Positions 30,625 to 45,493 of a stretch of 64,000 nt of DNA are shown in pieces. Each line of letters starts with the position of its first letter. Positions within the stretch are counted from its first letter, which is position 1. The DNA comes from Roseburia sp. AF12-17LB (GTDB lineage: Bacteria > Bacillota_I > Bacilli_A > RF39 > UBA660). The translations under genes and the position numbers were made by a program. The notes under the pieces were generated by a model. The model saw only the letters and a program-made list of their open reading frames with translations. It was not told where the DNA came from and did not search any database. The DNA lies in the NCBI GenBank assembly GCA_963607615.1, contig CAVDCT010000010.1, positions 133 to 64,132 on the forward strand, given 5' to 3'.

Positions 30625-30879
30625 ATGAGTAGCCACTTTTACTATTTTTAAGCTATTCTTTGAGTAATAAATTCTGCATATTTTTAATGGGCATAAGGAG
30701 AATGCCACCATAATCTTATATTTACCTTATAAAATAAAGTAAATATGGTGGTGTCATTACTATTTTTGCACTTGCAAAAATGACTACTTTTTAAGTAGTA
30801 AGTGGCTACTCATATATAAATATTCCTTTAATACCAACAAAAAAAGTGGCTACCCTTTTTAATAAAAGTGACCACTCAT
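30625..30879. repeat. Four copies of a ~14-bp iteron-like motif AAGTG(G/A)C(T/C)ACTCAT
   Basis: 30625-30638 (inverted, ATGAGTAGCCACTT), 30800-30813 (AAGTGGCTACTCAT), 30844-30855 (AAGTGGCTACCC), 30866-30879 (AAGTGACCACTCAT). All lie upstream of the RHH/wHTH genes. Confidence 0.6.
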
Positions 30880-31211
30880 AACAAAATCATTAAAAATATA
30901 TGCTTCCTATACTTTTTAATTTATAAAACCATCTCCTTTAAATAAAAAAGAGAAGAACATAGTTCCTCTCCACACAATTTTTTCATATTATACACTATTA
31001 TAACTATTGACAAGCACAAGTCAAGTTCATTTTATGATCAATTCATGTAATATCATGTACAATTTGTGTCATAAAAATATGTAAGTTTTCTTCATAATTC
31101 TCACATATTTTACTATATTATAACACTTGACAAAATATATTCAAGTCAAATCAAGTCCGTTTTTGGTACGAATTTGGACTTTTTTGATACATTTTTAAAA
31201 ATTTGATAATT

Positions 31212-31607
31212 TTATATGTTTGATAATTTATCTTTAATATATTCATCCAACAAATAAGAATCCTTTTTTACCCATTTATAATCACAATGTTCATCACTTA
31301 ATATAACATTAACATCTGATTTATTAACATTAATAATAAAATCAATTTCTAAATCATGAATCAATTCATCATTTTTATTTTTTACTTCATCATAATAATG
31401 TGTAATAATTGGCTCAAATTATGAACTAAACCCAATTTCCTCAAATAATTCTCTTTTTAAACCTTCTTTTAAAGTTTCACCACTTTCTAGGTGGCCTCCA
31501 GGAAATTCCCATGCTCCTGGATATAAATCATCATTTTCACTTCTTTTAACTACCAAAAATTCATCATTAGATTTCAAAATTCCAGTCAAAACAATTTTTG
31601 TATTCAT
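31212..31607 (-). pseudogene. NUDIX hydrolase interrupted by one in-frame TAA
   Basis: The track ORF ends ..GGHLESGETLKEGLKRELFEEIGFSS*. The same frame continues FEPIITHYYDEVKNKNDELIHDLEIDFIINVNKSDVNVILSDEHCDYKWVKKDSYLLDEYIKDKLSNI*, giving a normal ~130-aa NUDIX length. Confidence 0.7.
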
Positions 31608-31765
31608 ACAAAACCTCCCATTTATTTTTAATTACATCATATATTTTCAATAAATCATCGTTAATTATAAATTTGTTGTTTTTATTTCTATAAATAAAAA
31701 GCTCTATTATCATCATTATAAATATAACATAAAAAGACTAGTTATTAAAGTGCCAAAAATGAGAT

Positions 31766-33733
31766 TTATTTCATTTTTCTAGTTTTTATCAATCTTAAAG
31801 TAGATTCAGGAACTAATATTTCAAGCAATTCATCATCATTTTCTTCAACTGCTCTTCTTACTGTCTTAGCGCTTATTTCATCACCATTTATATTTCTAAA
31901 TCTAGGTATTTCTATTAATTCAATTCCATATAGTGGTAAATTTCTTTTAAGTTCTTTATTATATTCTCTAGTTATGTAGTCATTTTGTTCTTGACCAACA
32001 AATCTTTTTTTTATATTTAAGACCGGTGCTATATATTGAGTAAATATTTCTTGATCTATTGATAAATCAAGAGATACATCAGTTGATTCACTTCTATTAA
32101 AATACTCAGGAAATATCATTGATGAACCAAATATCTTACCACTTGGTATTACTACTACATTTTCAAAGTCTTTACAGCCTTCTTTAACCATTTCATATCT
32201 ATCTTTAAAAGAATATTTTGATTTATCTTCTTGTACAACCATTACAATTAAAGTATTAACTTCTTTTCTAGCATAGTCTATCAGTTTATAATGACCATAA
32301 GTAAATGGATTACAATTCATAAGTATTGCACCATTATTGCTAGTATTAATATTTAAACCCTTAAGAAATTCTAAATATTCATTCAAATATCTATTGTTAC
32401 CAAATATATTTCTTTTTTTAGTATTAGGAATAGCTATTGCTAAAGTATGATTAATAGAATCAACAGTCTTTAATTCTTTTTCAATTTTTTCATAAATAAA
32501 ACGTGCTATCATGTCATTAGCTTCACTATTACAATGTGCCGGTTTATCTATAAAGTAATTTTTTAATACTCCTGAATTATATAATTCAAGAAGTGATATA
32601 GCACTATTATATCCCATACTTTTTAATACTTCATTTTCTTTCTTAGATACTATAAATATAAATTTATCATTAAGTTTACTATTGATATTATCAGCTATTC
32701 TTACTTGTTCAAAAAATTCCATAGCTCTTAATCCATAATTATTAACAGAATAATCTCTATTATTTTCATTTATTATTCTTTGCAAACAACTAGGAATAGT
32801 GTTTTTGTCATCTACTAAAACTCCATATACCATACAAGGACCTAAAAAATTAATATCAAAAGCATAATCTCTATTTTTATCTGTTGTAACTCTTTTACCA
32901 TTGATAGTTCTACAAAATTCATTATTTGAATCAGCTAATCTACATATTCCATTTTGTATTATGGTACCAGGAGAAATATTTTCTAAACCACAAAATTTTG
33001 TCATAAAACTTTCACCATAAATACTATTTAATAATTTAGTAATTTCTTCGTCTATATTGTATTTACTTAAATAATATATATATCCTATTTTACTATCTAA
33101 TCTCTTTCTTTCTTCTAAACTAAAAGATGTTATGTCATCAGTACTAGGAAATTCAAATACTGTTATATAAAGTTTTTTAGATAATTTTTTAACAAAATAG
33201 TAATATTCAACATTTTCACATAATTTAGTTAAACTTATTAAATTTTTATTAAATAGTATTTCTTTGAGTTTTAATCCATTTAAACAAGTATCTAATACTA
33301 TTTCATTATTATCGATTAATTTTTTTACTATATCTAAATCATAATCAATTACTTCTACCTCAAAATCGTTACCATATACATTAATATAACTATATAAAAT
33401 ATTAGATAATTCACCAGTAATGTATATTTTTTTGAGATTTAAACTTCTTAAATAATCAATTACTTTGTCATTATCTTTGTATAAATAATTCCATCTATGT
33501 TTATCTATATAAGTATTATTACTCCAAACATTTTCTATTTCTTTAATATCTTGTTGCATCTTATCTTCTTCTATTATTGGATTATAGCCAACTTTAACTG
33601 AATCAATATAAGAATGATAAGTTATATAAGAATTATTACATAAGACAATAACACTTGTTTCATCTTCTAAAAAAATTTTGTTAATATTGTTAAAATAATT
33701 TTTATCATTAGTATCTAATTTAACAAATCTCAT
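31766..33733 (-). CDS. Large protein with a C-terminal CitC-like (citrate lyase ligase-type) nucleotidyltransferase domain; the N-terminal ~440 aa are unknown
   Basis: C-terminal ..GAILMNCNPFTYGHYKLIDYARKEVNTLIVMVVQEDKSKYSFKDRYEMVKEG..VVIPSGKIFGSSMIFPEYF.. (HxGH-type motif of cytidylyl/adenylyltransferases). Confidence 0.55.
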   Translation of the reverse strand: MRFVKLDTNDKNYFNNINKIFLEDETSVIVLCNNSYITYHSYIDSVKVGYNPIIEEDKMQQDIKEIENVWSNNTYIDKHRWNYLYKDNDKVIDYLRSLNLKKIYITGELSNILYSYINVYGNDFEVEVIDYDLDIVKKLIDNNEIVLDTCLNGLKLKEILFNKNLISLTKLCENVEYYYFVKKLSKKLYITVFEFPSTDDITSFSLEERKRLDSKIGYIYYLSKYNIDEEITKLLNSIYGESFMTKFCGLENISPGTIIQNGICRLADSNNEFCRTINGKRVTTDKNRDYAFDINFLGPCMVYGVLVDDKNTIPSCLQRIINENNRDYSVNNYGLRAMEFFEQVRIADNINSKLNDKFIFIVSKKENEVLKSMGYNSAISLLELYNSGVLKNYFIDKPAHCNSEANDMIARFIYEKIEKELKTVDSINHTLAIAIPNTKKRNIFGNNRYLNEYLEFLKGLNINTSNNGAILMNCNPFTYGHYKLIDYARKEVNTLIVMVVQEDKSKYSFKDRYEMVKEGCKDFENVVVIPSGKIFGSSMIFPEYFNRSESTDVSLDLSIDQEIFTQYIAPVLNIKKRFVGQEQNDYITREYNKELKRNLPLYGIELIEIPRFRNINGDEISAKTVRRAVEENDDELLEILVPESTLRLIKTRKMK

Positions 33734-33757
33734 TATTTTTCCCCCTGTTAGATAGAA

Positions 33758-34516
33758 TTATTTATTTAATATAAAATCTACTATCTCGTTATCAAATCCA
33801 TACAATTCATGTTTTCCTTCATGAATTATCTTATATTCTATCTTATTTTTATCACAAAATTTTATCACGTTATTAACGTCTACTGTTTTATCTAAATCTC
33901 CTTGAATAATAAATATATTATTAAATTTTTCATTTTTAATATATTCATCACCAGATTTAAACTCCAAATAAGCATCTTTATATATTTTTATATTATTATA
34001 TAAAGGTAAGTACTCATTATCATCAAAATATTCAATATTAAGATTACCAGTTTTTCTTTCCATAATTTCACAAAAATTAATAGCTGGGCACATTAAATAT
34101 ATTTTATCTACATCATCAATTATTTCTTTATAGGCATTAAGTATAACGAATCCACCATAACTAGATCCAAATAAATATATTTCACTATCTTTATTTTTTT
34201 CTTTAATATAATTAATGGTATCTTTTAAATAGGAAATACAATTACTTAAATTAAATTTTTTAAAATCATTTCCATCTTCACCATGAGAAATCAAATCAAT
34301 ACTATAAGTATCATAACCATTGTTTAATAAATCTTTATAAAATCTAGTAATCCAATTCTTATTTCCACCTAATCCATGCACATATATTATTACTTTTTTA
34401 TTTTTAGGTTCTGTTGCACTAAATAAATGTATCCTATTATTAATAGTAAAATCTATATTTACTCTTTTATCTTCCCTAGCTATTTCTACTAACTCTTCTA
34501 TCATAATTTCCTCCAA
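33758..34516 (-). CDS. Alpha/beta hydrolase
   Basis: ..IYVHGLGGNKNW.., nucleophile elbow ..LFGSSYGG.., C-terminal ..HEGKHEL.. Confidence 0.7.
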   Translation of the reverse strand: MEEIMIEELVEIAREDKRVNIDFTINNRIHLFSATEPKNKKVIIYVHGLGGNKNWITRFYKDLLNNGYDTYSIDLISHGEDGNDFKKFNLSNCISYLKDTINYIKEKNKDSEIYLFGSSYGGFVILNAYKEIIDDVDKIYLMCPAINFCEIMERKTGNLNIEYFDDNEYLPLYNNIKIYKDAYLEFKSGDEYIKNEKFNNIFIIQGDLDKTVDVNNVIKFCDKNKIEYKIIHEGKHELYGFDNEIVDFILNK

Positions 34517-35313
34517 CTTATTACTTTCTTAAATGTATCTTTATTAGGAAAATCTTTTTCCTCAGTTTCCCTAAAAACTTTCTCATAATCATATGGTACT
34601 TCATATTTGATTAGTTTCGCACCATTCTCTAATATATAATATATAGCTTTATCTGTAATAGCAACTCCTGTACCATTTAATGAGTCTAATATTACATTTC
34701 CAAGAATATGATTTCTTTCAAAATGATAATGGCCATATATAATTCTATCAAAATCAAATATATTTTTACCAAATAATAATGGATTTTTATCTGCAATTTT
34801 AACATTTTCATATAATTCTGGTTTATATTTTTCGATATCATCAGAAGTATTTCTTTTTAAAAATTCTTCAGGATTTTTTTCATCATATTTCCAAACACCT
34901 ATAAAATCATATCTAACATCTAGTGGAAAATGACAAAGTCCTATTTTTTTACCATTTATAACTAATTCTACTGATACTGGACTATTATTTATATAATCTA
35001 ATTCTTCAGCACTTAATTGTTCACTGGTCCATATAGCATTATTATATCTTTCAATATTATTACGTTTTAAATAAGGAAACATATCTGGTCCCATAGTAAC
35101 ATATGCTTCTGCATTGCCTTGTATATTAATTATATTATTATCAATAGCAAGCCTTACTGTTTCACTAGGAGCATATCCTAATCCTATTATATCACCCGAA
35201 GAATAAATAGTATCTATATTTTTATCTTTCATATCTAATAAAACAGCTTGTAGTGCTTCTACATTAGCATGTACATCTGTTATTAATGCTATTTTTTTCT
35301 TCATATTATTCAC
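34501..35313 (-). CDS. Metallophosphoesterase
   Basis: ..IALITDVHAN..SSGDIIGLG..QGNAE..GHYHF.. motifs. Confidence 0.75.
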   Translation of the reverse strand: MNNMKKKIALITDVHANVEALQAVLLDMKDKNIDTIYSSGDIIGLGYAPSETVRLAIDNNIINIQGNAEAYVTMGPDMFPYLKRNNIERYNNAIWTSEQLSAEELDYINNSPVSVELVINGKKIGLCHFPLDVRYDFIGVWKYDEKNPEEFLKRNTSDDIEKYKPELYENVKIADKNPLLFGKNIFDFDRIIYGHYHFERNHILGNVILDSLNGTGVAITDKAIYYILENGAKLIKYEVPYDYEKVFRETEEKDFPNKDTFKKVISWRKL

Positions 35314-35375
35314 CTCTACTTGAATTATTTATAAATTAATGTTAGTATATGTAACAAAAGAAATGGAGTGTTAAA

Positions 35376-35855
35376 ATGATAATTATCGAAGGTCTTGATG
35401 GTACTGGTAAAACTACTCTTGCAAATGATTTATTAAATAAGAATTATATACTTATCAATAATAATTTAACCAGTGAATCACATTATGATAAATATGTTAA
35501 TATTATTAAAACTTCAGATATTAATTCTGTTAGTGATAGATCATTTGTAAGTGAAATGGTCTATGGTAAGGTTTTATCTGGTACTACTAAATTATCAGAA
35601 GAAGAATTTATTAATCTTGTAAAACTATATTCTGAATATGAAACAAAAATTATATATCTATATGCTTCAAAAAAAATTCTTTTAGAAAGAAGAAAAGATG
35701 ATTTTAAAGATAGTAAAGTTATCTTTCATCTATACCAAAAACTTATGGATGAATTTGAAAGAAGACTTGACTACATTTCAGCATATATAGATGTATTTTC
35801 AATAAACACTGGTGAAAAAAATTGTAAACAAGCTCTAGCTAAAATTATTAAATAA
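35376..35855 (+). CDS. Thymidylate-kinase-like P-loop nucleotide kinase (short, 159 aa)
   Basis: MIIIEGLDGTGKTTLA.. and ..DRSFVSEMVYG.. It is the only plus-strand gene in the element. Confidence 0.6.
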   Translation: MIIIEGLDGTGKTTLANDLLNKNYILINNNLTSESHYDKYVNIIKTSDINSVSDRSFVSEMVYGKVLSGTTKLSEEEFINLVKLYSEYETKIIYLYASKKILLERRKDDFKDSKVIFHLYQKLMDEFERRLDYISAYIDVFSINTGEKNCKQALAKIIK

Positions 35856-36833
35856 GTTTGTATAATTTTTTACCTTAATTATCTCAATTTTATCTTTATC
35901 AATAACAATATTTTCATGTCTATCAATTTCATATCTTGGTTTTAATATTGTTGTTACACTATCATGAATATTTAGGTCATCCGTATTAATAGAATTATCC
36001 CTATTAATACTTTTTTTATTAATCAATGCAATTGATAGATTATCTTTATCTTGAAATAATTCTTCTAATAAGTCTTTAACAGTACTAGTAATAATATTCC
36101 TATCCTCATTATTAATATTATATTCAGACATCATTTTAGAGATATTATTCATTACTCCTTCATAATTTTTTATATAAAATGCTAAATTATCATATCCTTC
36201 TTTATAAGAATACAATCCATTAGATACAAACCTAGATAGCAATACTGGCGATAATAAGGAATAATAATAAGCAGCTCCAAAATTATCTGTTGTAAATATT
36301 GAATTATTATCCTTATATGACCAATTATATGTCATGGCATTCCTTATTCCATATTTTTCTAAAATATTATTAATATTTCTTAATTTAGTTGATATTGTAT
36401 CATCACCATTTAGTCCTTTAGCTAATATACTTTCTTTAAAAGAAGAATTAAAGCCATGATAACAATATCCGTTATATATGTACCTATCTATCATATATGA
36501 TACTATTTTATCTTTAGATCTATATTTTTCAATTAACTTATCTATAAGATAATCATCCATCATATTATATAAATCAGTTACACTATTAGAAGTATTTATC
36601 ATATTTATCAATTTTATAGTATAATTATCAACTTCTACATTAGGAATAAGTATTATCAAATCAGATATTTTTTTTATTACATTTGACATTATAAATACTT
36701 GTTCATCTATAAATGAGTATTGATTAAATCCATATTTAGATAAATCAATTCTATACTTTTTATTTAACAATCTACTAAATATACTATCAAATCTAGAATC
36801 AAAAATTTTATTAAATTCTTGCACAATAATCAC
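35835..36833 (-). CDS. Hypothetical protein (332 aa)
   Basis: ORF that is the last gene of the long cargo operon. No secure motif. Confidence 0.4.
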   Translation of the reverse strand: MIIVQEFNKIFDSRFDSIFSRLLNKKYRIDLSKYGFNQYSFIDEQVFIMSNVIKKISDLIILIPNVEVDNYTIKLINMINTSNSVTDLYNMMDDYLIDKLIEKYRSKDKIVSYMIDRYIYNGYCYHGFNSSFKESILAKGLNGDDTISTKLRNINNILEKYGIRNAMTYNWSYKDNNSIFTTDNFGAAYYYSLLSPVLLSRFVSNGLYSYKEGYDNLAFYIKNYEGVMNNISKMMSEYNINNEDRNIITSTVKDLLEELFQDKDNLSIALINKKSINRDNSINTDDLNIHDSVTTILKPRYEIDRHENIVIDKDKIEIIKVKNYTNLFNNFS

Positions 36834-36834
36834 C

Positions 36835-37287
36835 TTATTTAAAATATTCTTTTATTGCCTCTTTTTGATATGGTAACACTATACGTTCAAGTAGTTCTTC
36901 TTTTGTACATTTTACTAACTCAGAATTTTTTTCTAATGGTTCATTTTCATCATCAGATACTTCTACTATATAAATATTACTTAAAGAATTCATATTAACT
37001 TTACTTCTAGTATACCAATAGCAATCTATAATACATAATTCTTTCATACTTACAATTTTTAAACCAGCTTCTTCCATAAATTCTCTTTTTAGGCATTCCA
37101 AATGAGATTCACCATCTTCAAGACCACCACCTATTAAAGAATAGTCACCGTCTTTAGATGTAATATAAAACTTATCATTTTTCTTTACTATTCCAAAACA
37201 AGTTTCTCTAAAGCAATATTTAATATTATTATCTTTATTACCTATTATTATTTTATTCATCCCATTTTCTCCATACATCTTTTCCAT
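36835..37287 (-). CDS. NUDIX hydrolase
   Basis: Nudix box GGGLEDGESHLECLKREFMEEAGL. An alternative start, ATG 37260, sits behind GGAGAA. Confidence 0.8.
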   Translation of the reverse strand: MEKMYGENGMNKIIIGNKDNNIKYCFRETCFGIVKKNDKFYITSKDGDYSLIGGGLEDGESHLECLKREFMEEAGLKIVSMKELCIIDCYWYTRSKVNMNSLSNIYIVEVSDDENEPLEKNSELVKCTKEELLERIVLPYQKEAIKEYFK

Positions 37288-37959
37288 TTTTTATTAACTT
37301 ATTTAACTGCCTTTGTTCATCTCTATAATCCATACATTGCCAAAATCCATCATATTTGTATGCAACGATATCATTAGTCTTCATTAGTCTTTCAATTACT
37401 TCACTTTCAAATGGCCCAGAATCCTCACTTAGATAACTAAATATTTTTTTATTAGCTATCATATATCCACCATTAACCCATTCACACTCTCGTAATTCTT
37501 TTTCCCTAAAGTTTTTAATTTTATTGTTTTTTATTTCAAATATACCAAATCTTTCTTTAGTCTTAAATACAGATAAAGTAAGTAATTTCTTATGTTTTTT
37601 ATGATATTCAATAAGATTATCAATATTTATATCCGATACGGCATCTGCATATGTAAGTGCAAAATCTTCATCATCAATATATTTTTCTACTTTTTTAATC
37701 TTCCACCAGTACAAGTATCAAGACCAGTATCTACTAATTTAATATTCCAATCTTCATTAACAGTACTAAAAAATTCTTCAAACAAATCTATTCGATAACC
37801 TAAGCATATTATAAAATCTTTAAACCCATAATAAGAATAAATTTTCATAATGTGCCATATTATAGGCATATCCCCTACTTTTACTAATGGCTTTGGAGTA
37901 AAATCTTCATCAGTTCTAATTCTACTACCTTTTCCTCCTGCAAATATAATACACTTCAT
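37253..37959 (-). pseudogene. rfbF: Glucose-1-phosphate cytidylyltransferase, frameshifted in an A6 run
   Basis: The N-terminal part is MKCIIFAGGKGSRI..KPLVKVGDMPIIWHIMKIY..TGGRLKK*. The +1 frame continues VEKYIDDEDFALTYADAVSDINI..GFWQCMDYRDEQ.. The sequence TTAAAAAAGTAG (near 37694-37705) would be in frame with seven As. Confidence 0.8.
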
Positions 37960-37967
37960 AATTGCTC

Positions 37968-39641
37968 CTATACCTTTAAGATACTACTATTATTAATAGA
38001 TGTATTCCAGTAGTAGTCATCTTCTTTTTTCATAACCAATACCTGATGTTGTAGTATTTCAGTAATATATGATATTTCATTCAAAGACAATATTATATTT
38101 CTAAGTATTATCATGTTATCTTTTAGTTCAATATCTTTTAAATCTATTTCTTTTCCTAATTTTTTGATTAGTTTTTTTACATCATTTTTACTAACCATTT
38201 TTAAATTATCATTCTTTTTTTTACAAAGATTTCTTTGGTAATTAGGACATTTATTACACTTACAAATGTCACTATTATAAAAGAACTTTCTATCTGGTTT
38301 AGATAAAGCAACTGCTAAGGCACATGATGTAGTTTGATAAATTGGATAATCACTTTCGCCTTTAAGATGTTTCCAAACATATTCATAAGCATTCTTATCC
38401 CAAACATTATCTGCTTTTAATGCTTCTTTCCTATGATTCCTTAATTCGTTCCATTCAATATGATCTATTATTTCATCTGTAATTTTAAGACCAATTGCTA
38501 CAGATGCAACAGCATATTTTTTAACAAAGTTATATATTCTATTTATATCTTCTTTTCTACTATTAGAAGGCATAAATGGTCTCCAATAATGAACAATAGT
38601 TTTATTATACTTATGCAATGTAATAAAATTATTTTCTATATCTTTTCTATTTACTCCAACTTCTATATCTTTATCAAATCCTGAATAACTTAAAAAGAAT
38701 ATAAATTTTTTACCTTGTTTTTCATAATTATCTATAAATTTTATAAAATCTTCTGGTATTTTACATTTAGTAATAAATACAATTGGATTTTCAACATTTT
38801 TTTCCATTAATATAGTTACTAATTGTTTTAAATATTCAATATTATCTGGTGTAGAAAAACCATCTGTTTGAGATAATAAACATAGTGGAATATCTTTTAT
38901 ATAAAATTTACTTTTTAATAGCAACTTAACAGCATTTTCAGGAGATGCTAACACCTTTGGTTGTACTAAATTAAGCTTTCTTTCCCTTAAAAAGCAATAT
39001 TTACATTGTTTTGGGCATCCTTGAACAGGATTAAGTACCATCCATGTAGCATGTACATCTACAATTGGATAAAATTTTGCTTCTTTTACTTTAGCAAATC
39101 TATCTAAAAACTTATTGGCATCATTAAGCATTAAATCAAATTCATGAGCCATATTTACATTTAAGACATTAGCTATATTAAATATAATTTCCAACATGTT
39201 AGCAAGTTTATATAATATAAAATCATTCACTTTTGAAAATTCATATCTAATTTTATAATGTCTATATTTATATTTTTCAAGTATTATTTCTGACACTTGC
39301 CCATATACTACATTGAATGATAATATTGCATCATTTATAGATGAAAACTCTACTTTTTTATAATTATACTCGTACTCTTTTAAATTTAATTTAAGTTTCC
39401 ATGCAAGCGCTACTATTTGAAGTACAATATCAGATAATTCATCTCCAATATCATAAATATTTCTTCCTACTTCTTTATATTCTTTATGTTCTAACATAAG
39501 TAAACAAAAATGTCCTAGTTGTGTATTCATCTCGCCTAGAACTGTAATAGCGTTCCAGTTTTTGTCTTCTGTTATCTTAAAATTCTTTTTTAGTTCAATT
39601 GCTTTATCATAATAATTATCTAAAAAATATTTAACATTCAT
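37968..39641 (-). CDS. Fusion protein: N-terminal MazG-like all-alpha NTP-pyrophosphohydrolase-like region plus C-terminal radical SAM domain (COG1533/SplB-like cluster context)
   Basis: N-terminal ..VLGEMNTQLGHF..IGDELSDIVLQIVALAWKLKLNL.. The middle has ..LNPVQGCPKQCKYCFLRE.. (CxxxCxxC). Confidence 0.6.
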   Translation of the reverse strand: MNVKYFLDNYYDKAIELKKNFKITEDKNWNAITVLGEMNTQLGHFCLLMLEHKEYKEVGRNIYDIGDELSDIVLQIVALAWKLKLNLKEYEYNYKKVEFSSINDAILSFNVVYGQVSEIILEKYKYRHYKIRYEFSKVNDFILYKLANMLEIIFNIANVLNVNMAHEFDLMLNDANKFLDRFAKVKEAKFYPIVDVHATWMVLNPVQGCPKQCKYCFLRERKLNLVQPKVLASPENAVKLLLKSKFYIKDIPLCLLSQTDGFSTPDNIEYLKQLVTILMEKNVENPIVFITKCKIPEDFIKFIDNYEKQGKKFIFFLSYSGFDKDIEVGVNRKDIENNFITLHKYNKTIVHYWRPFMPSNSRKEDINRIYNFVKKYAVASVAIGLKITDEIIDHIEWNELRNHRKEALKADNVWDKNAYEYVWKHLKGESDYPIYQTTSCALAVALSKPDRKFFYNSDICKCNKCPNYQRNLCKKKNDNLKMVSKNDVKKLIKKLGKEIDLKDIELKDNMIILRNIILSLNEISYITEILQHQVLVMKKEDDYYWNTSINNSSILKV

Positions 39642-39642
39642 T

Positions 39643-40500
39643 TTAAAACCATTCTTTCTTTTTAACTTTTATAATACTGTCATATTCTTTTTTATCATCA
39701 GTATCTAAATATTCTTTCTTATGCTCTAATACGTTTATAAAATAATTAATAATGTTTCTTCTTATGTTGTAATCTGGAATATCTAGAATAAAATTATTAT
39801 AATGTGATTCTGTATGATACAAGACATCCATTGCTTTCTTTTTGATTTTTTCATAGTCATCATTTCTCATAATGCTATTATTTGATTTGTAATAATAGTA
39901 TCCAATATATGGAATCGATATAACTGTAGATGCTTTGTACAATTGATAAGAAGTTAGGCCAAAATCCTCTTGTGTTTTACCTTGTAAAAATTTAAAATTG
40001 TTATTCTCCCAAAACTGTCTACTATAACAGTATAGCCAAGAAGGACTATATATTTCATTATTAACTGCACATAAATTTAAAAAATCAAGACCTTTATATA
40101 TTCCAATATTTTTAGTAACAAATTCTTCCACAATATTCTTATTATTATCAATCATAACCGCTTGAAATCTAAGCATATCATATTCAACATCATCGTATTC
40201 ATTAATAGTTTCAATTAATTTTTGATTAATAGTATCATCTATATCTAAAAAAATAATTAAATCCCCTGTACATTTAGTTAATCCAAAATTTCTTACAGCA
40301 CCTGGATCATGTTTAGATATTTTGTACAGTTTTATTTTATCCTTATATTGCATAAGTGTTTTATAAGAATTATCACAACTATTATCATCAATAGCAATAA
40401 TTTCATAATTATCACATGTTTGATTAAAAATAGAATCAAGACATTTATCAATATATCTTTCTCCATTATATATTGGTATTATAATACTTACCTTTTTCAT
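39643..40500 (-). CDS. Family 2 glycosyltransferase
   Basis: MKKVSIIIPIYNGERYIDKCLDSIFNQT..YEIIAIDDNSCD..FLDIDD. The start is probably ATG 40500 rather than the track start at 40527. Confidence 0.85.
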   Translation of the reverse strand: MKKVSIIIPIYNGERYIDKCLDSIFNQTCDNYEIIAIDDNSCDNSYKTLMQYKDKIKLYKISKHDPGAVRNFGLTKCTGDLIIFLDIDDTINQKLIETINEYDDVEYDMLRFQAVMIDNNKNIVEEFVTKNIGIYKGLDFLNLCAVNNEIYSPSWLYCYSRQFWENNNFKFLQGKTQEDFGLTSYQLYKASTVISIPYIGYYYYKSNNSIMRNDDYEKIKKKAMDVLYHTESHYNNFILDIPDYNIRRNIINYFINVLEHKKEYLDTDDKKEYDSIIKVKKKEWF

Positions 40501-40615
40501 ATAACCACCAGCCCTTGTTATATTCATTTATAAGCAAAAAAGAGAGACTATAAAACTAGGCCCTCTTCCTCCACAACTACCACGAATTAATTTATCACTT
40601 ATTCTATTACTTTTT

Positions 40616-41032
40616 TTAATAAAAATCAAGTATTTTGACATATTTCATTTTTTTATAAATGGATATAACATATAGATTCATACAATCAAAATTTTTATCA
40701 TATATAACATTATCAATAATTGAAATCATATGATAATAATCTTTCTTATTCCAACAAAACACAACATATGAATTATCATTCAAATTTAAATCTTTAATCA
40801 TAATATCTTTATTATAGTCAATATTAAAAATATTATTATCTTCCATATATTTTTCAAATACTGGTATATCATTAAATGAATCACACTTTAAATCTTCAGC
40901 AATTTTACATAAGTCATTATAAACATCATTATATTCTTTATTTAAAATCTTACATAAGCTTCTTATCACACAATTACTTTTACCATTTTTATCTGATATA
41001 TAAAATTCTTTAAATGTCATATTAATCCCCAA
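40616..41032 (-). CDS. Hypothetical protein (138 aa), possible papain-like Cys/His fold
   Basis: ..GKSNCVIRSLCKIL.. and ..YYHMISIIDNVIYD.. This is a weak pattern only. Confidence 0.35.
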   Translation of the reverse strand: MGINMTFKEFYISDKNGKSNCVIRSLCKILNKEYNDVYNDLCKIAEDLKCDSFNDIPVFEKYMEDNNIFNIDYNKDIMIKDLNLNDNSYVVFCWNKKDYYHMISIIDNVIYDKNFDCMNLYVISIYKKMKYVKILDFY

Positions 41033-41510
41033 TCTTTTTTATATTTGTATACATTCTTGAATGATATCCACTTTTATCATAAAACTTAATAGCATTATCA
41101 TTATAAGCAAATACATCTACTAAAATATATTCACAACCCAATGATTTAAAATATTCTTCCATTTTATTCATAAGCATATTGCCTATACCTTTACTTCTTA
41201 CATTTTTGGAAACTACTAATTCAGTTATTTCTCCTCTTTTAGGGCATTTATAATCAAGATAATCATATTCATCATATGGAAAAATACATCCCATAATTAA
41301 ACCTACTGCTTTATCATTTTCAACTGCTATATAACATTTACCATTATTATTTTTAACTTCTTCTAAATCTAAAATTGCCATTTTTTCTCTATATTCTGGA
41401 TGTAGTTGATCTAAATTATCTTTATCAATAGATAAAATATACTTTTCAAGTTCAACTAACAAGTCTTTAACATCTTCTAAATATTTATCTTCGTACTCTA
41501 TTATTTTCAT
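41022..41510 (-). CDS. GNAT-family N-acetyltransferase
   Basis: ..ELVVSKNVRSKGIGNMLMNKMEEYFKSLGCEYILVDVFAYNDNAIKFYDKSGY.. Confidence 0.8.
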   Translation of the reverse strand: MKIIEYEDKYLEDVKDLLVELEKYILSIDKDNLDQLHPEYREKMAILDLEEVKNNNGKCYIAVENDKAVGLIMGCIFPYDEYDYLDYKCPKRGEITELVVSKNVRSKGIGNMLMNKMEEYFKSLGCEYILVDVFAYNDNAIKFYDKSGYHSRMYTNIKKIGD

Positions 41511-42108
41511 TATTAAAATAATACTCCTTAGTTAATTCGTATTTAGAAAAAGTTAATATTCCATCATAAAATGTATAAGGTGACTCTTCTTCTATTTCAC
41601 CAATTTTATTAAACCCTAATTTTTCAAACATTCTACAAGATCTTATATTATCTTTTACAGCACCTGAAGAAATACCATTTATTTCTACTTCGCTAAACAT
41701 ATAATCTATCATTGCTTTAGCAGCTTCTGTTGCATAGCCTTTTCCTTGATAAGCCGGATCCATATACCAACCTACATCACGAATAGTAATATCTTCTCCA
41801 TTTTCTTGAGCAGATACTTGTCCAATTACTTCTTCATAACCACTATTCGTATATTCTGGTTTTAAAAATACACTCCATACAAATACATCATTATTATCTG
41901 CTTTATCAACTTTAGATTTATAGAATTTCTCTTGATTCTCCCAAGCCCAGTGGCTAGGATTATTAGCGTGTTTTTTGGCACCTGTTAAATACCATTTATT
42001 TACTTCTGGAATCATTAATATCTCCCATAATCTTTTTTGTTCTTCCATCTTAGAACTTCTTAATATTAATCTTTCAGTTTCTATAGTTCTACTACCAATT
42101 AAATTCAT
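41485..42108 (-). CDS. GNAT-family N-acetyltransferase (RimJ/RimL-like)
   Basis: ..IETERLILR.. N-terminus and ..QGKGYATEAAKAMIDYMF..VKDNIRSCRMFEKLGF.. Confidence 0.8.
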   Translation of the reverse strand: MNLIGSRTIETERLILRSSKMEEQKRLWEILMIPEVNKWYLTGAKKHANNPSHWAWENQEKFYKSKVDKADNNDVFVWSVFLKPEYTNSGYEEVIGQVSAQENGEDITIRDVGWYMDPAYQGKGYATEAAKAMIDYMFSEVEINGISSGAVKDNIRSCRMFEKLGFNKIGEIEEESPYTFYDGILTFSKYELTKEYYFNNENNRVRR

Positions 42109-42122
42109 TTACATCCTCCATT

Positions 42123-42664
42123 TTATATTTCTATACTATCAAATATATTTTCTTCTATATCATAAATAGTAAATTTTCTATTTTCATACATCATATATGT
42201 AGGATTATTGTTTTCTTTAGGTATAGATATTGAACCAACATTAATATATACCATATCTTTTTCTTTTTTTATATAAGGTATGTGTTCATGACCATATACC
42301 AATATACCTTTTCTGTTAAATTTTCTATTCTTTTCTAAATTATATTCATTACCATGAGTTAAATAAATATCTAACCCATCTACACATATTAAAGCTAAAT
42401 TATTACAAATTGGAAAATCACTTGCTTTAATATCAACGTCTGAATCACAATTACCTTTTAAACAAATAATTTTATCTGAATATTTAGTTAATGTATCTTT
42501 AACATTCATACTATTAACTTCATACTTTTGATTATACGTAGGACCGGCATAATATAAATCACCAAGAACTACTAATTTATCTATTTTTTCTTTTTCAATA
42601 ACTTTTTCTATTTTTTTAAATTAATATTAATACCATGTATATCTGATATAAATAATATCTTCAT
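42123..42664 (-). pseudogene. YfcE/MJ0936-type metallophosphoesterase, frameshifted in an A7 run
   Basis: ATG 42664 gives MKILFISDIHGININLKK*. The next frame continues IEKVIEKEKIDKLVVLGDLYYAGP..MNVKDTLTKY.. into track ORF 42123-42509 (..GNCDS..THGNE..GHEH..). One extra A in TTAAAAAAATAG restores the frame. Confidence 0.7.
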
Positions 42665-42679
42665 GTTTGTCTCTCCTTT

Positions 42680-43024
42680 CTACTTAAATTTTTCTATTAC
42701 TTCAAATATTTCAAATATTACTTTAGTATTATCATTAAAATTAGTATTTATTTTACTAAAGTAATCTATATGAACTTTTATCCATTCTTCTAAAGATTTA
42801 TTTTCTCCTTCTAATTTTGCTAAATCCCAAGTAATATTCTTAAATTCAGTTACAATAACTTCTTTTGTTTCTAATATACACATATCATTATTATTTGAAT
42901 CAGTAAGTATAGATACATCACCTACTATAGGTAAACTATCAAATTCATACAAAGATGTTGTTGCTGTCTTCTTACCGTTTAAAACAAGAACAACTAATTT
43001 ATCTGCATCTATCCTAAATGTCAT
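42680..43024 (-). CDS. ASCH domain protein (COG4405/YhfF-like)
   Basis: ..LVVLVLNGKKTATTSLYEF..PIVGDVSILTDSNNNDMCILETKEVIVTEFKNITWDLAKLEGEN.SLEEW..H..F. Confidence 0.65.
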   Translation of the reverse strand: MTFRIDADKLVVLVLNGKKTATTSLYEFDSLPIVGDVSILTDSNNNDMCILETKEVIVTEFKNITWDLAKLEGENKSLEEWIKVHIDYFSKINTNFNDNTKVIFEIFEVIEKFK

Positions 43025-43036
43025 CTTTTAAGTTTA

Positions 43037-43792
43037 TTATACACGTGTCTTACCCCACCAATCAGGAATTAATTCTTCTAATCTCACTATTTCTTTAGTA
43101 TCAATATTTTTTAGTATCTCAATATCCTTACTATTCTTAGAAAGTTGCATCATATATTCTCTACATGCCCCACACGGTGAACCTACATTACCTTTAGAAT
43201 CAACGCATACTAGTTTAATAATCTCATTTTCTCCATTTGTAATCATATTGGCAATAGCATTTCGTTCACCACACATACCAAGTGTTGATGCTGTATCAAT
43301 GCATACTCCTGCATAAATATTATGATTTTTAGTAAGTATTGCTGCACCAACTTGTCCTGCACTAATCATACCTGACACATCTCTTGGATTTCTTACATTC
43401 TTAGCTTTTTCATATAATTCTTCCCAAATAGTGTTTTCACTATATAAATATTCTATATGAATAGCATATACACCATTTTTCTTAATGGCATCTTCATATC
43501 CATCAAGTTTACTTACATTTCTAATAGCTTCTTCTTTATCATTGGTAGATGAAGTTGTGTATCTAGTTCCTTCTAAAGTAAAAAGTTCTTCTAATGAATC
43601 ATAATGATTTACTTCTTTAACTTTAACATAAAATACACCTAAATCATTACTAGTAAATTCTATAATATCATTTTGTTTTAATTTACTATAATCATGCTCA
43701 CTATTTTCTTTATTTGCTCTAATCTCTACTCTTTTAGTATTATTTTTGATAGCTAGTGCTGCTCTATCATTAATATTTAATTTCATTATCAT
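43037..43792 (-). CDS. Fusion: N-terminal ASCH domain plus C-terminal cytidine/blasticidin-S-type deaminase domain
   Basis: N-terminal ..ALAIKNNTKRVEIRAN..NDIIEF.. C-terminal ..QVGAAILTK..MCGERNAIANM..SPCGACREYM..LEELIP.. (zinc-binding C-x-E ... PCxxC). Confidence 0.75.
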   Translation of the reverse strand: MIMKLNINDRAALAIKNNTKRVEIRANKENSEHDYSKLKQNDIIEFTSNDLGVFYVKVKEVNHYDSLEELFTLEGTRYTTSSTNDKEEAIRNVSKLDGYEDAIKKNGVYAIHIEYLYSENTIWEELYEKAKNVRNPRDVSGMISAGQVGAAILTKNHNIYAGVCIDTASTLGMCGERNAIANMITNGENEIIKLVCVDSKGNVGSPCGACREYMMQLSKNSKDIEILKNIDTKEIVRLEELIPDWWGKTRV

Positions 43793-43809
43793 TTTAATAT
43801 CCTCCTAAC

Positions 43810-43835
43810 AAAAAAATTCTGCATAATGCAGAATT
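43810..43835 (-). terminator. Leader terminator directly upstream of the ASCH-deaminase RBS
   Basis: Minus-strand AATTCTGC-attat-GCAGAATT followed by TTTTTTT, then AGGAGG-N8-ATG (43792). Confidence 0.6.
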
Positions 43836-43860
43836 AATTTTATAATCTAAAAGAATATTC

Positions 43861-43926
43861 CTAAAAGTTTAATATATTAGGAGTAGTGATTAATTCTGCA
43901 TTATTTATAACTTGTAAATTTTTCAT
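43861..43926 (-). CDS. Candidate 21-aa leader ORF (MKNLQVINNAELITTPNILNF)
   Basis: ATG behind the strong RBS AAAGGAGTG. It contains one arm of a 16-nt perfect complement to the terminator's 5' arm. Confidence 0.35.
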   Translation of the reverse strand: MKNLQVINNAELITTPNILNF

Positions 43927-43964
43927 CTTAATCACACTCCTTTCTTTGAATAATTTACACCTAC

Positions 43965-43993
43965 AATATATCACACTTTAATCACTTTGTAAA
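43965..43993 (-). promoter_or_regulatory. Putative promoter of the cargo operon
   Basis: Minus-strand TTTACA-N17-TATATT, ~35 nt upstream of the leader ORF. Confidence 0.4.
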
Positions 43994-44229
43994 TTACATA
44001 TACATTTTTCTATAGCGATTAAAACAAATCATTTTTATTTTTTAGGAAAAACTAATTAAAATTCCTAAAAAAATAAAATTTATTATATTTATGTTACTTT
44101 TCTAATTATTATTTTGGTATTTTAATTTTAAAAGTAACATTTTATATTTCTACAAAACAATTATAATTAAACCTAACATCATACTTTTTAGTATATTTAC
44201 TACTTATTCCTCTAGTGATTTTTGTGATA

Positions 44230-44242
44230 TCATTTATTAGAC
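44230..44242. repeat. Terminal inverted repeat, distal end (attR side)
   Basis: TCATTTATTAGAC, the exact reverse complement of 27392-27404. Confidence 0.8.
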
Positions 44243-44251
44243 AGTAAGGTG

Positions 44252-45493
44252 TAAAGCAGTTACAGATACACCCTGTCCAAATGCTGTAGTAGCTGTTTCC
44301 AAATCACCTATTTTATCAACATTAAATAATATACCATTCTCTTCTCCACTAAGTTCAATACCTGTTTTGGTACCAAAGCCAAAATTTTTAATATATTTAA
44401 ATAATTTTTCTTTACCAAGTTTCAATCCAATATTAACAAAACCCGTATTACAAGAATTCTCTACTACCTCTAAATATGTCTGACTACCATGACCACCATG
44501 TTTCCAACAATGAATAGTAGCACCCTCAACAGTAACACTACCTGAATCCTGGAATGTATCTTTATCTAAATCTATTAAATTTTCTTCTAATGCAGCTGCT
44601 AATGAAATTATTTTAAATGTTGAACCGGGTTCATAGGTCATCCAAATAGGTAAATTACGATTTATCTCTTCTAATGAATAATCTTGATAATTAGTTGGAG
44701 AAAAAGTAGGACGTGATGCCATAGCTAATATTTCACCCGTATTAGGATTCATAACTATTCCCCATGCACCATCTGGATTATACATCTTAATAGCATTGTC
44801 TAATTCTCTTTCTAAAGCTTCTTGAATTTGAAAATTTACAGTTAATGTCATATTCATACCTGCTTGTGGTTGTTCATATATTTGACTTAAACTTAATTTT
44901 TGTCCTTTAGCATCACTAAAATATTTAATAGCACCATAACTTCCTGTTAAATAATCATTATAAATAAGTTCTAAACCACTAAGTCCTTGATTATCAATTC
45001 CAACAAAACCTAATGTATGTGATAAATAAGTATCATAAGGATAATTTCTCTTTGATTCTTTTACTAGATAAACTCCTGATAATTTTAAATCATTAATTTG
45101 ATCAGCTATTTCATTACTAAGTCTTCTTCCTTCTGGATGTACTCTTTCAATTGATGTTTTTTTTGTAACATGTGCTAACATATCTTTATAATCAGATTTT
45201 AATATATTAGATAATAATTTAGCTGTTTTTTCTTTTTCTTTAATTTGATTAGGTATTAAAACTAAAGAAGTAGTAGTAACATTACCTGCTAATGTAACAC
45301 CATTTCTATCATATATATTTCCCCTATTAGCCTCTAATGGTAAATTCCTACTCCATAAGTCTTTAGCATACTTATTCAATTTTTTATAACTAATAACTTG
45401 AATATAAAATACTTTTAATGTTATTACAATAAAAAGAAATATAATTATAACAAGTACTAAACGCATACGTTCATTCATTTTGCTTATAAACAT
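44252..45493 (-). CDS. 5' segment of the interrupted class B penicillin-binding protein gene (TM anchor, dimerisation domain, SxxK and SxN motifs)
   Basis: ..RMRLVLVIIIFLFIVITL.. anchor, ..RGNIYDRNG.., active-site ..GSTFKIISLAAALE.. (SxxK) and ..NSCNTGF.. (SxN). The conserved ..FGQGVSVTAL then diverges into HLTV* inside the element end. Confidence 0.85.

Follow-up and report, generated by a model that had tools for sequence, protein, structure and literature searches.

A conserved radical SAM gene cluster, possibly for a modified CDP-sugar, on a mosaic element that splits spoVD in a gut bacterium

Introduction

Radical S-adenosylmethionine (SAM) enzymes act on nucleotide-linked sugars or nucleosides in several pathways, with DesII, BlsE and PolH/NikJ as examples. 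Mobile elements can also decorate the glycopolymers of their hosts, as when the prophage-encoded family 2 glycosyltransferase (GT2) TarP acts on wall teichoic acid, or in the serotype-converting gtr cassettes. This paper concerns an element of about 16.9 kb that lies within spoVD, and the gene cluster that it carries, in a 64,000-nucleotide stretch of DNA (the window; G+C about 24%) from Roseburia sp. AF12-17LB, contig CAVDCT010000010.1. Gene-intervening elements are familiar from spore formers, where skin is found in sigK, SPbeta in spsM, vfbin in spoVFB, vrin in spoVR and gin in gerE (PMC4191935, PMC5595907, bioRxiv 2022.02.25.481979). Spore glycans, for their part, are made in the mother cell by soluble enzymes (PMC7439481).

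The reading preferred here, which is put forward tentatively and with somewhat less than even confidence, is that the core genes of the cluster make a radical-SAM-modified, probably cytidine diphosphate (CDP)-activated sugar for a glycoconjugate, and that this core and a variable, cytidine-related head are both carried on a mosaic element in spoVD. The argument draws on the synteny of the core, its dN/dS values of 0.09-0.30 and its gene fusions; on a nucleotidyltransferase that is nearest to glucose-1-phosphate cytidylyltransferase; and on a CitC-like unit for which fusions to GT2, pyruvyl transferase, HAD or Fe-ADH_2 domains occur in other proteins. It draws also on related clusters that add GT2s and sugar-tailoring enzymes, and on distant radical SAM homologues that sit with enzymes using nucleotide-linked substrates.

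The core unit and its conservation

The cargo of the element consists of two units, a head described below and a core that extends from 40500 to 31212. The core has the following features, in the order in which the minus strand is read (aa, amino acids; NTP, nucleoside triphosphate; dNMP, deoxynucleoside monophosphate):

40535-40629, minus strand: probable internal promoter (TTGATT-17-TAGAAT, 40629-40601) and imperfect hairpin/U-run (about 40571-40535) before GT2
39643-40500, minus strand: GT2 glycosyltransferase, first core gene (Pfam Glycos_transf_2, 2.5e-24; kept in 11 of 11 loci; dN/dS 0.21)
37968-39641, minus strand: 557-aa protein with an all-alpha NTP-pyrophosphatase-like domain (aa 1-190), a radical SAM domain and a small C-terminal domain
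37253-37959, minus strand: sugar-1-phosphate nucleotidyltransferase, frameshifted (6 A against 7 A near 37692-37697; Pfam NTP_transferase in both halves)
36835-37287, minus strand: NUDIX hydrolase 1 (Pfam, 4.7e-9)
35835-36833, minus strand: p332, 332 aa, restricted to this block (only 20 clusters)
35376-35855, plus strand: P-loop dNMP/dTMP-kinase-like protein (PHROG 761, 4e-13; same orientation in all loci)
34501-35313, minus strand: metallophosphoesterase, 270 aa (Pfam Metallophos, 3e-9; kept in the window-type block)
33758-34516, minus strand: alpha/beta hydrolase, 252 aa (Pfam Hydrolase_4 and Abhydrolase_1)
31766-33733, minus strand: CitC-like protein, 655 aa (Citrate_ly_lig, 1e-51; HxGH nucleotidyltransferase at aa 468-647)
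31212-31607, minus strand: NUDIX hydrolase 2 (NUDIX2), NudI/MutT-like, nonsense-disrupted (in-frame TAA at 31419-31421)

When the radical SAM protein was scanned against 185,579 species-representative genomes and the window proteins were mapped onto every locus recovered, 11 loci were found, all in gut-type metagenome-assembled genomes labelled Bacilli or Clostridia. The order of the nine to ten core genes is kept throughout: GT2, radical SAM, nucleotidyltransferase (not always present), NUDIX, p332, the opposite-strand kinase, the metallophosphoesterase (likewise not always present), hydrolase and CitC-like gene. Identity to the window is 99-100% in L001 and L002, 68-90% in L003 and 35-62% in L004-L011, and dN/dS between the window and L003 is 0.09-0.30 across nine genes, a sign of purifying selection. 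The recurrence of this gene order in 11 species-level genomes is far beyond chance, and the co-function that an initial annotation of the window had proposed from gene spacing is thereby matched by conservation elsewhere. Cargo proteins with at least 90% identity are encoded on as many as 87-114 contigs, where the only name given to them is "hypothetical protein [Bacilli bacterium]". A phage origin of the core was considered and rejected, as tblastn found no match in 50,697 phage records.

The 16 gene calls of the initial annotation, with their order and coordinates, were all reproduced from the list of open reading frames (ORFs) and from Pfam and NCBIfam. So was the tight packing to which it had pointed: 10 of the 14 same-strand junctions overlap or span 15 nucleotides (nt) or fewer, the exceptions being the gaps in front of GT2 (115 nt), the CitC-like gene (24 nt) and NUDIX2 (158 nt), and the interval that holds the kinase gene. 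Its view of the cargo as one tightly coupled operon is harder to keep. Because the head genes for ASCH/CDA, YfcE and p138 are missing in 9 of 11 related loci, and because a promoter and a leader hairpin probably belong to the core itself, two units or more are probable. In the divergent loci L004-L011 GT2 is preceded by an invariant TTGACA-N17-TATGATAnTATAA promoter, about 150 nt upstream in L005-L011, and by a leader of about 110 nt that ends in a hairpin and U-run; the window and L003 have a weaker positional counterpart before GT2, the window hairpin itself being weak (z = -0.65). On the minus strand of the whole element there are only two terminator-like sites. A riboswitch upstream of GT2 was looked for and rejected: the window gave no Rfam match, and RNAalifold on six leaders returned the terminator stem only, with no covariation.

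The same comparison bears on the idea that the cargo has no coherent function and consists of accreted housekeeping paralogues decaying in a defective element. In its favor, disruptions affect three of the 16 genes of the window, and the frameshifts in yfcE and in the RfbF-like gene and the nonsense codon in NUDIX2, all noted in the initial annotation, are real features of the window copy. Yet all three genes are intact in L001, an element about 99.5% identical in another species, where the A-run of yfcE has 8 A instead of 7, that of the nucleotidyltransferase has 7 A instead of 6, and NUDIX2 has GAA instead of TAA. Since the three lesions are absent from so similar an element, they are recent lesions or sequencing errors and not marks of an ancient wreck. 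Synteny in 11 species, the dN/dS range, the fusion links described below and the occurrence on 87-114 contigs also stand against accretion. The genes do co-occur outside this genome, and accretion, a very improbable account, can be regarded as effectively refuted.

The radical SAM family and its partners

The radical SAM protein belongs to a family of 109 clusters with two architectures, of about 557 and about 375 aa. Its motif, CPKQCKYC, supplies the CX3CX2C cysteines at C209, C213 and C216, which are invariant in 36 homologues. Four extra cysteines (C440, C460, C465 and C473) are invariant in the same set and could bind an auxiliary Fe-S cluster or zinc. The Pfam radical SAM score is 25.3, under the gathering score of 29.5. 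An AlphaFold2 (AF2) model of the 557-aa protein (pLDDT 92) has six N-terminal helices within aa 1-186, and in Foldseek searches its radical SAM core matched SuiB, HydE, viperin, PFL-AE and SP lyase with E values of 1e-5 to 1e-3. The all-alpha domain matched the dimeric dUTPase 5myd (E = 9e-3, TMt 0.46); there is no Pfam MazG match, and an ExxD-type motif, IGDELSDIVLQIVALA, can be read in the sequence. Single-sequence and profile searches of the PDB were uninformative for this protein, for p332 and for the 655-aa CitC-like protein.

The all-alpha domain was traced in related loci with a hidden Markov model built on the N-terminal 190 aa. In the window it is fused to radical SAM, and in L019 to a NUDIX domain; in L013, L022 and L017 a separate, adjoining gene encodes it (E 1e-68 to 1e-47). 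A further fusion, of NUDIX to the alpha/beta hydrolase, is found in L015, L016 and L020, and of 10 distinct contexts of the radical SAM gene 8 have a NUDIX gene adjoining it. Taken together, these alternative fusions place the radical SAM enzyme, the all-alpha domain, NUDIX and the hydrolase in a single pathway.

Other clusters built around the family vary in what accompanies this set. A second cluster type has six orthologues of the window core (GT2, the radical SAM fusion, the nucleotidyltransferase, NUDIX, the hydrolase, and the CitC-like protein at 1e-205) and adds two GT2s, a hexapeptide acyltransferase and a HAD protein, additions that by analogy look like classic sugar tailoring. In L017 the additions are three GT2s, a methyltransferase and a polysaccharide deacetylase. 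At the other extreme are minimal modules (L019 and L021) of radical SAM plus NUDIX, with or without the all-alpha domain, in mobile-element contexts near Abi_2, Imm33 and RhuM. Distant radical SAM homologues in Streptomyces have MurA, Mur ligases, UGPase and glycosyltransferases as neighbors, all enzymes with nucleotide-linked substrates. On the plasmid pFRL6 a radical SAM homologue lies in a cluster that adjoins transfer genes and includes MazG, two dCTP deaminase-like genes, a cytidine deaminase (CDA), a methyltransferase, UGPase, a glycosyltransferase and a HAD protein. The cytidine and sugar-nucleotide theme that the initial annotation had seen in the window therefore recurs even in this Streptomyces plasmid cluster, with its MazG, dCTP deaminases, CDA, sugar-1-phosphate nucleotidyltransferase, glycosyltransferase and HAD. 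The pFRL6 genes were rejected as an orthologous cluster, only the radical SAM protein and, weakly, the nucleotidyltransferase being homologous.

On other Streptomyces plasmids (L024, L025 and L028) the radical SAM homologue consistently has a MurA-like enolpyruvyl transferase and a class II aldolase as companions, and a 3'-5' exonuclease and an AAA ATPase are often next. The MurA-like/radical SAM pairing resembles PolA-PolH of nucleoside antibiotic pathways.

A possible pathway for the core

The nucleotidyltransferase, when read from its intact copy in L001, scores 238 bits against TIGR02623 (RfbF), where the cutoff is 300.25, and its N-terminal G-x-G-x-R loop is readable as FAGGKGSRIR. By sequence it is closest to glucose-1-phosphate cytidylyltransferase, below the curated cutoff. 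The initial annotation had named it a CDP-glucose-forming RfbF; RfbF remains the best-scoring family, but the score does not reach what that name would need.

The CitC-like protein scores 154 bits against TIGR00124 (cutoff 262), over profile positions 121-328 only. Its N-terminal 460 aa form a different, unnamed region with about 490 relatives and a conserved core at aa 255-425 or so. This region adjoins Citrate_ly_lig in 9 of 9 relatives scanned, and these relatives combine the unit with GT2, polysaccharide pyruvyl transferase, HAD or Fe-ADH_2 in one polypeptide.

The kinase-like protein scores 27 bits against TIGR00041, under the cutoff, and has a 41% identical homologue in the alternative cassette of L030 (see below). 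Its gene is convergent with p332, which it overlaps by 21 nt (35835-35855), and divergent from the metallophosphoesterase gene, from which 62 nt separate it (35313-35376); this antisense arrangement is kept in every locus that carries the block.

The p332 family has the invariant motifs H-G, Y-Y-Y and E-x-D-R-H. Scans of Pfam, NCBIfam and PHROG, a PDB profile search and Foldseek against the PDB and BFVD gave no recognisable family or fold, the best Foldseek E values for the AF2 model (pLDDT 87) being 1.6 in the PDB and 0.28 in BFVD. The H-G...Y...E pattern suggested an ADP-ribosyltransferase as a candidate, which was rejected: DarT1 in the PDB came at E 4.6 with a probability of 0.10, DarT and a PARP domain in BFVD at E 1.4 and 1.3, and the PDB profile search was empty. 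The recurrence of DarT-type enzymes in the PDB and in the viral library alike is at the level of noise and serves as a lead only.

From the gene content, conservation, purifying selection, fusion links, absence of membrane proteins and element boundaries read directly from these loci, a pathway can be sketched whose substrates, order of steps, acceptor and biological role we infer. The RfbF-like transferase would form a CDP-hexose, and the radical SAM enzyme would alter it, with the fused all-alpha domain supplying or recognising the cytidine nucleotide. GT2 would then move the modified sugar onto an acceptor. The CitC-like protein, the kinase, p332, the metallophosphoesterase and the hydrolase would add or process a further phosphoester or acyl decoration, and NUDIX would cleave nucleotide-linked intermediates or by-products. 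No transmembrane segments were found in the cargo proteins or in the proteins of any cluster type, and the clusters have no priming transferase, flippase, polymerase or exporter, so that the acceptor must be on the cytoplasmic face. It would be either a host-made lipid-linked wall polymer or a spore surface that is built inside the mother cell.

The carrier element

The element and the genes at its borders are as follows:

27383-44249, minus strand: intervening element in spoVD, about 16.9 kb; both junctions read, and the host flanks rejoin into one ORF
44237-45493, minus strand: spoVD 5' fragment (PBP_dimer, and Transpeptidase profile positions 4-167)
26725-27382, minus strand: spoVD 3' fragment (Transpeptidase profile positions 194-298, and PASTA; in-frame rejoin)
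27365-29020, minus strand: large serine recombinase, 551 aa (Resolvase, Recombinase and Zn_ribbon_recom; CcrC/CcrB/XisF-like)
29026-30711, minus strand: recombinase-proximal arm with an Arc-like repressor, a replication-initiator fragment, p144 and p68 (PHROG matches)
30403-30711, minus strand: Arc-like repressor (PHROG)
30080-30409, minus strand: N-terminal fragment of a phage-type replication initiator, 109 aa (PHROG 4707, 8e-21)

The ORFs on either side of the element are the two halves of one class B penicillin-binding protein. In the 5' fragment the host letters stop at 44250, and the element supplies the final four codons and the stop. When the host flanks are joined at 44250/27382 the reading frame is kept and a single 633-aa ORF results, whose product reaches 744 bits against TIGR02214 spoVD_pbp ("stage V sporulation protein D"; cutoff 688). 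On this profile evidence the interrupted host gene is judged to be a genuine spoVD. The two junctions have the core ACA in common, and the attP reconstructed from the element ends contains a perfect 13-bp inverted repeat (TCATTTATTAGAC / GTCTAATAAATGA) centred on the crossover junction. The large serine recombinase lies at the element edge, abutting attR beside the spoVD 3' fragment. Judged by the in-frame split, the edge recombinase and the dyad attP, the carrier is classed as a skin-like gene-intervening element. No mention of a link between spoVD and an intervening element was found in the literature searched.

The recombinase ORF crosses attR (27365-27382), and its final five codons and stop are host spoVD sequence; excision would therefore alter the C-terminus of the recombinase. 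Directly upstream of it is p68, a 68-aa ORF (29026-29232) with no family match, which by its position is a candidate recombination directionality factor. This protein is only 82% identical in L001, whose neighboring proteins are 97-100% identical. The initial annotation had seen no phage genes, which is correct for the cargo range it covered; the recombinase-proximal arm outside that range does hold the Arc-like repressor and the replication-initiator fragment (30080-30711), which point to a phage or plasmid derivation of the element's right arm. The best promoter match of the element (TTGACT-16-TATAAT, 11 of 12 positions) lies on the minus strand at 30949-31024 in the window, between NUDIX2 and the Arc-like gene, with a strong terminator-like hairpin (10 bp and a T-run) within some 30 nt downstream of it; the site could give a tiny transcript or be regulatory.

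Several observations speak to the mobility of the cargo. The crossover point in L001 is the same as in the window, and the flanking spoVD fragment is only 72.5% identical at the protein level; set against the 99.5% identity of the element, this argues for recent horizontal transfer into the same target. L003 carries the same cargo with a recombinase that is 44% identical, and here it splits a Peptidase_S11 D-Ala-D-Ala carboxypeptidase (dac) gene (7060-7464 and 19935-20717), by its sequence a second cell-wall or cortex gene hit by carriers of the core cargo. Downstream of the core block, L009 has two recombinases; the block of L010 has a recombinase of its own at its end, beside mraY and spoVE. 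L010 has two different large serine recombinases within 16 kb (3500-19732) around a spoVD 3' fragment, mraY and spoVE, one of which closes a spoVD-inserted element and the other of which comes after the core block. The initial annotation had asked whether the cluster travels with serine recombinases, and it does so in L003, L009 and L010 besides the window. Its description of the genes as element cargo holds for these carriers but not throughout, as in at least three genomes (L006, L007 and L011) the core stands among ordinary chromosomal genes with no recombinase after it.

The targeting of spoVD and dac would be explained if the cluster were strictly sporulation-linked, that is, expressed in the mother cell, possibly from an excised circle, to modify spore coat, exosporium or cortex. 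This account seems improbable, although several facts suit it. The host gene is a genuine spoVD by its profile score, the gene that the cargo of L003 interrupts encodes a D-Ala-D-Ala carboxypeptidase, spoVE is a neighbor of the block in L010 and L011, all the enzymes are soluble as in the sps and yfn spore-glycan genes, and SPbeta interrupts the spore polysaccharide gene spsM (PMC4191935). On the other side, the promoters found are sigma-70-like consensus matches not identified as sigma-E or sigma-K sites, and the core also occurs beside PPDK/PfkB, IS200/M4 peptidase and KsgA. Furthermore, targeting reflects the specificity of the recombinase and need not reflect the cargo, and the reported skin elements share no cargo.

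The head unit

The head extends from 43792 to 40616, behind a leader of its own:

43965-43993, minus strand: promoter-like site, TTTACA-17-TGxTATATT (10 of 12 matches, TG extension)
43815-43926, minus strand: leader with a 21-codon ORF (43926-43861) and an intrinsic terminator (43835-43815)
43037-43792, minus strand: ASCH-tetrameric CDA fusion, 251 aa (Pfam dCMP_cyt_deam_1; PDB; PHROG 19935)
42680-43024, minus strand: stand-alone ASCH protein, 114 aa (Pfam PF04266, 5.9e-18)
42123-42664, minus strand: YfcE-family phosphodiesterase, frameshifted (A-run near 42610-42617)
41485-42108, minus strand: GNAT acetyltransferase 1, Acetyltransf_3 (also in L003, 84%, and L030, 92%)
41022-41510, minus strand: GNAT acetyltransferase 2, RimI-like (also in L003, 89%, and L030, 93%)
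40616-41032, minus strand: p138, Cys/His protein (PHROG 3754, unknown function, 7e-8)

The genes for the ASCH-CDA fusion, ASCH, YfcE and p138 occur only in L001 among the 11 loci, and the two GNAT genes also in L003. In the ASCH-CDA fusion, aa 14-116 match the ASCH/PUA-like structures 1s04 and 2z0t and aa 3-114 match PHROG 19935. The best PDB match of the C-terminal domain is the B. subtilis CDA 1jtk (9e-13), the zinc motifs MCGERNA and SPCGACRE are readable, and the domain scores 77.6 bits against PRK05578 (cutoff 74) and 72.7 bits against TIGR01354 (cutoff 113.65). Blasticidin-S deaminase was rejected as an identity for it, with matches of 1e-4 to 6e-3 where true cytidine deaminases score about 1e8-fold better. 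The intact YfcE of L001 scores 158 bits against PRK09453 (cutoff 117) and also passes TIGR00040. There is no match to p138 in Pfam or NCBIfam, and L030 has a 70% identical homologue.

The ASCH protein YqfB deacetylates N4-acetylcytidine (ac4C), as the initial annotation had correctly stated (PMC6972931). N4-acetylation of cytidine blocks cytidine deaminase, and tetrameric CDAs are able to convert N4-acylcytidines directly (PMC9897663). ASCH deacetylation and the CDA step being consecutive, the fusion would unite two salvage or detoxification steps: the ASCH domain would strip the N4-acyl group, and the fused deaminase would then convert cytidine to uridine. From its domains, the head most likely salvages or detoxifies a modified cytidine. 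The chemistry of acetylation, deacetylation and deamination that the initial annotation had emphasized belongs to the variable head and is not part of the conserved pathway.

The promoter and leader that had been placed near 43990 were also recovered, as the promoter-like site, short ORF and terminator listed above. The 21 codons of the leader ORF read MKNLQVINNAELITTPNILNF. Two pairing partners are open to the 3' half of this ORF: its own ribosome-binding region, or the 5' arm of the terminator, with which it would form an antiterminator helix of 13-16 bp. Thermodynamic modelling lost the terminator only with a ribosome set at about leader codon 3, and on this model the leader looks like a translation-sensing attenuator.

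A sister element and the nature of the product

The commonest variant of the ASCH-CDA fusion is found on human-gut contigs (L030-L033), in a sister element at the same spoVD site (6846-18756). The left end is common to the two elements (leader and ASCH-CDA 98%, GNATs 92-93%, p138 70%), as is the right arm (87-100%); the sister lacks ASCH and YfcE and has a split GNAT1. Between these ends lies another cassette, of 6.4 kb, with NUDIX, HAD, a 499-aa radical SAM enzyme, Amdase-like, HhH-GPD-like, kinase, PfkB and MazG genes, in which the dTMP-kinase-like protein is 41% identical to that of the window; the HAD (deoxynucleotidase-like) and HhH-GPD assignments are motif readings only. The cassette thus holds the same toolkit in non-homologous form, with no glycosyltransferase.

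The replacement of the core by a deoxynucleotide-flavored cassette free of glycosyltransferases, with the head retained, suggests that nucleotides and not glycans are the common theme, and it is one of several points that weigh against a modified CDP-sugar as the product. The radical SAM fold matches are generic, and therefore no substrate can be read from them. The minimal modules L019 and L021 have neither a glycosyltransferase nor a nucleotidyltransferase. The RfbF-like gene falls under its family cutoff and is missing from L007, L010 and L011, and thus is not indispensable. The window-type core has a single glycosyltransferase, p332 has no family assignment, no acceptor or glycan locus was identified, and the window copy is damaged in three genes, the nucleotidyltransferase among them.

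The swap of cassettes is central to a different proposal, a conflict system in which the radical SAM enzyme, the all-alpha NTPase, the kinase and NUDIX turn a pyrimidine (probably cytidine) nucleotide into a toxic analogue. The analogue would poison phage or competitor polymerases, or leave the cell as a nucleoside antimetabolite; GT2 and the other transferases would mask or mature the product, the ASCH-CDA/GNAT head would shield the producer through acetylation, deacetylation or deamination of the analogue, and the element would be a hotspot of cassette exchange, all in the logic of viperin and CMPK2 and without homology to them. We consider this unlikely, if still the main competitor. Two non-homologous cassettes with the same toolkit (radical SAM, NUDIX, a MazG-type domain and a dTMP-kinase-like protein) lie between conserved element ends, and the head is kept with both. 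The minimal radical SAM plus NUDIX modules are found in mobile elements near Abi_2, Imm33 and RhuM, the Streptomyces homologues are on conjugative plasmids, one of them in a cluster with MazG, two dCTP deaminase-like genes and CDA, and the contrast between element (99.5%) and SpoVD (72.5%) identities indicates recent horizontal spread. Viperin is among the structural neighbors (6q2p, 9e-5), viperins are linked in the literature to nucleoside monophosphate (NMP) kinases and are sometimes fused to triphosphatase domains, and the head attenuator responds to ribosome stalling in the model. Leader attenuators that sense ribosome stalling are typical of antibiotic-inducible genes.

Against a conflict system, PADLOC reported no system and weak isolated matches only, and viperin is structurally no nearer than SuiB, HydE or PFL-AE. 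The glycan-type partners (several GT2s, an acyltransferase and the CitC-like unit fused to pyruvyl transferase) are left unexplained, the cargo has no exporter for an antimetabolite, the gene is absent from the 50,697 phage records, and the core is in plain chromosomal contexts in at least three genomes. A bolder version would hold that serine-recombinase elements in spore-cortex genes (spoVD and dac) carry interchangeable radical-SAM cassettes as a new antiviral or antimetabolite class, making pyrimidine nucleotide analogues by a viperin-plus-CMPK2 logic that is evolutionarily unrelated, with the head for self-protection and the ribosome-sensing leader as the switch; this seems to us rather unlikely, and somewhat more so than a conflict system in general.

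Phage pathways of base hypermodification combine a dCTPase, a kinase and a glycosyltransferase in a similar logic, and it is conceivable, if very unlikely, that the cluster builds a modified, possibly glycosylated pyrimidine into DNA or RNA, or places it there. The toolkit of a dUTPase/dCTPase-like all-alpha domain, a dNMP-kinase-like protein, a glycosyltransferase, CDA and ASCH (PUA-like, a fold that binds modified bases) would suit such a function, as would the deoxynucleotidase-like and apparent HhH-GPD proteins that motif reading alone assigns to the sister cassette, and the dCTP deaminases and methyltransferase of the pFRL6 cluster. The block, however, has no polymerase, hydroxymethylase, transglycosylase or restriction partner, the phage records have no homologue, and PHROG matches are confined to the kinase, ASCH and p138. 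The modified CDP-sugar remains the preferred product. Of the functions suggested in the initial annotation (a spore or envelope glycan building block, a nucleoside antimetabolite with its resistance genes, an anti-phage function), the present analysis narrows the choice without settling it.

Significance

The core is a conserved, widespread and wholly unannotated pathway of gut Bacilli around a radical SAM family that is new and small, with about 109 clusters. Independent fusions pin down the partners of the family, namely the all-alpha NTPase domain, NUDIX, the sugar-1-phosphate nucleotidyltransferase and GT2, making the pathway a target for enzymology. The ASCH-CDA fusion offers a plausible one-protein route for recycling N4-acylcytidine. 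With these carriers spoVD, and probably dac, join the short list of sporulation genes interrupted by putative developmental elements, and such elements appear able to carry coherent, exchangeable metabolic cassettes instead of prophage debris. If the product decorates wall or spore, it could affect phage adsorption, immune recognition and the spore properties of common gut bacteria; if it is a nucleotide analogue, new immune or antibiotic chemistry would be the outcome.

Comparison with known systems

The initial annotation had recognized no described system in this combination of genes, and the searches agree. PADLOC-DB v2 was negative for a described anti-phage defence system in the window and in the sister cassettes, its isolated weak matches being GNAT2 to PDC-M11A, the kinase to VakA/PDC-M51B and NUDIX to PDC-S07. 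The literature searched held nothing relevant on the combination of radical SAM, NUDIX, MazG, glycosyltransferase and nucleotidyltransferase, or on radical SAM with CDP-glucose and spores. By these comparisons the system appears to lie outside every described family that could be tested.

Viperin (pVip) with its NMP kinase is similar in linking a radical SAM enzyme to a nucleotide kinase and an NTP domain, in its cytidine theme and in its association with mobile elements. The 557-aa protein has no PADLOC, NCBIfam or PHROG match that would make it a viperin, and in the Foldseek ranking viperin 6q2p (9e-5) comes below SuiB, HydE and CteB and level with PFL-AE. Unlike viperin, moreover, the family here has four extra invariant cysteines and different accessory genes. 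The likeness to DesII, BlsE and PolH/NikJ is one of gene context only, a radical SAM gene beside a sugar-1-phosphate nucleotidyltransferase and a glycosyltransferase; to our knowledge, fusion to an all-alpha NTPase and a constant NUDIX partner are not features of those pathways.

For the head, the closest parallel is the salvage of N4-acetylcytidine by YqfB/EOLA1-type ASCH proteins and CDA, and both of the consecutive domains for this recycling are present (PMC6972931). Here, in contrast, ASCH and CDA are in one polypeptide, accompanied by two GNATs and a second ASCH protein, and the genes lie behind a putative leader attenuator on a mobile element. No mention of an ASCH-CDA fusion was found in the literature on ASCH ac4C deacetylation and CDA.

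The spsA-L, spsM and yfnHGFED loci of B. subtilis resemble the core in having soluble GT2s and sugar-nucleotide enzymes that work in the mother-cell cytoplasm (PMC7439481). Compared by description, they are without a radical SAM, NUDIX or CitC-like component. They too are linked to an intervening element, SPbeta in spsM, whereas here the cluster lies inside the element. Decoration of the TarP and gtr type resembles the pathway proposed here in depending on a soluble GT2 from a mobile element that would act at the cytoplasmic face on a host-made polymer, with no export genes of its own; the present element differs in adding a full sugar-nucleotide and tailoring pathway (radical SAM, NUDIX, kinase and CitC-like).

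The gene-intervening elements of spore formers provide the model for the carrier, with which they have in common the in-frame split of a sporulation gene, the serine recombinase at the edge by the 3' fragment, the dyad attP and a cargo that varies between elements. They differ in that the cargo here is a coherent metabolic cluster and not prophage remnants. Moreover, the same cargo is found here with different recombinases in different genes, and the same element frame is found with alternative cassettes.

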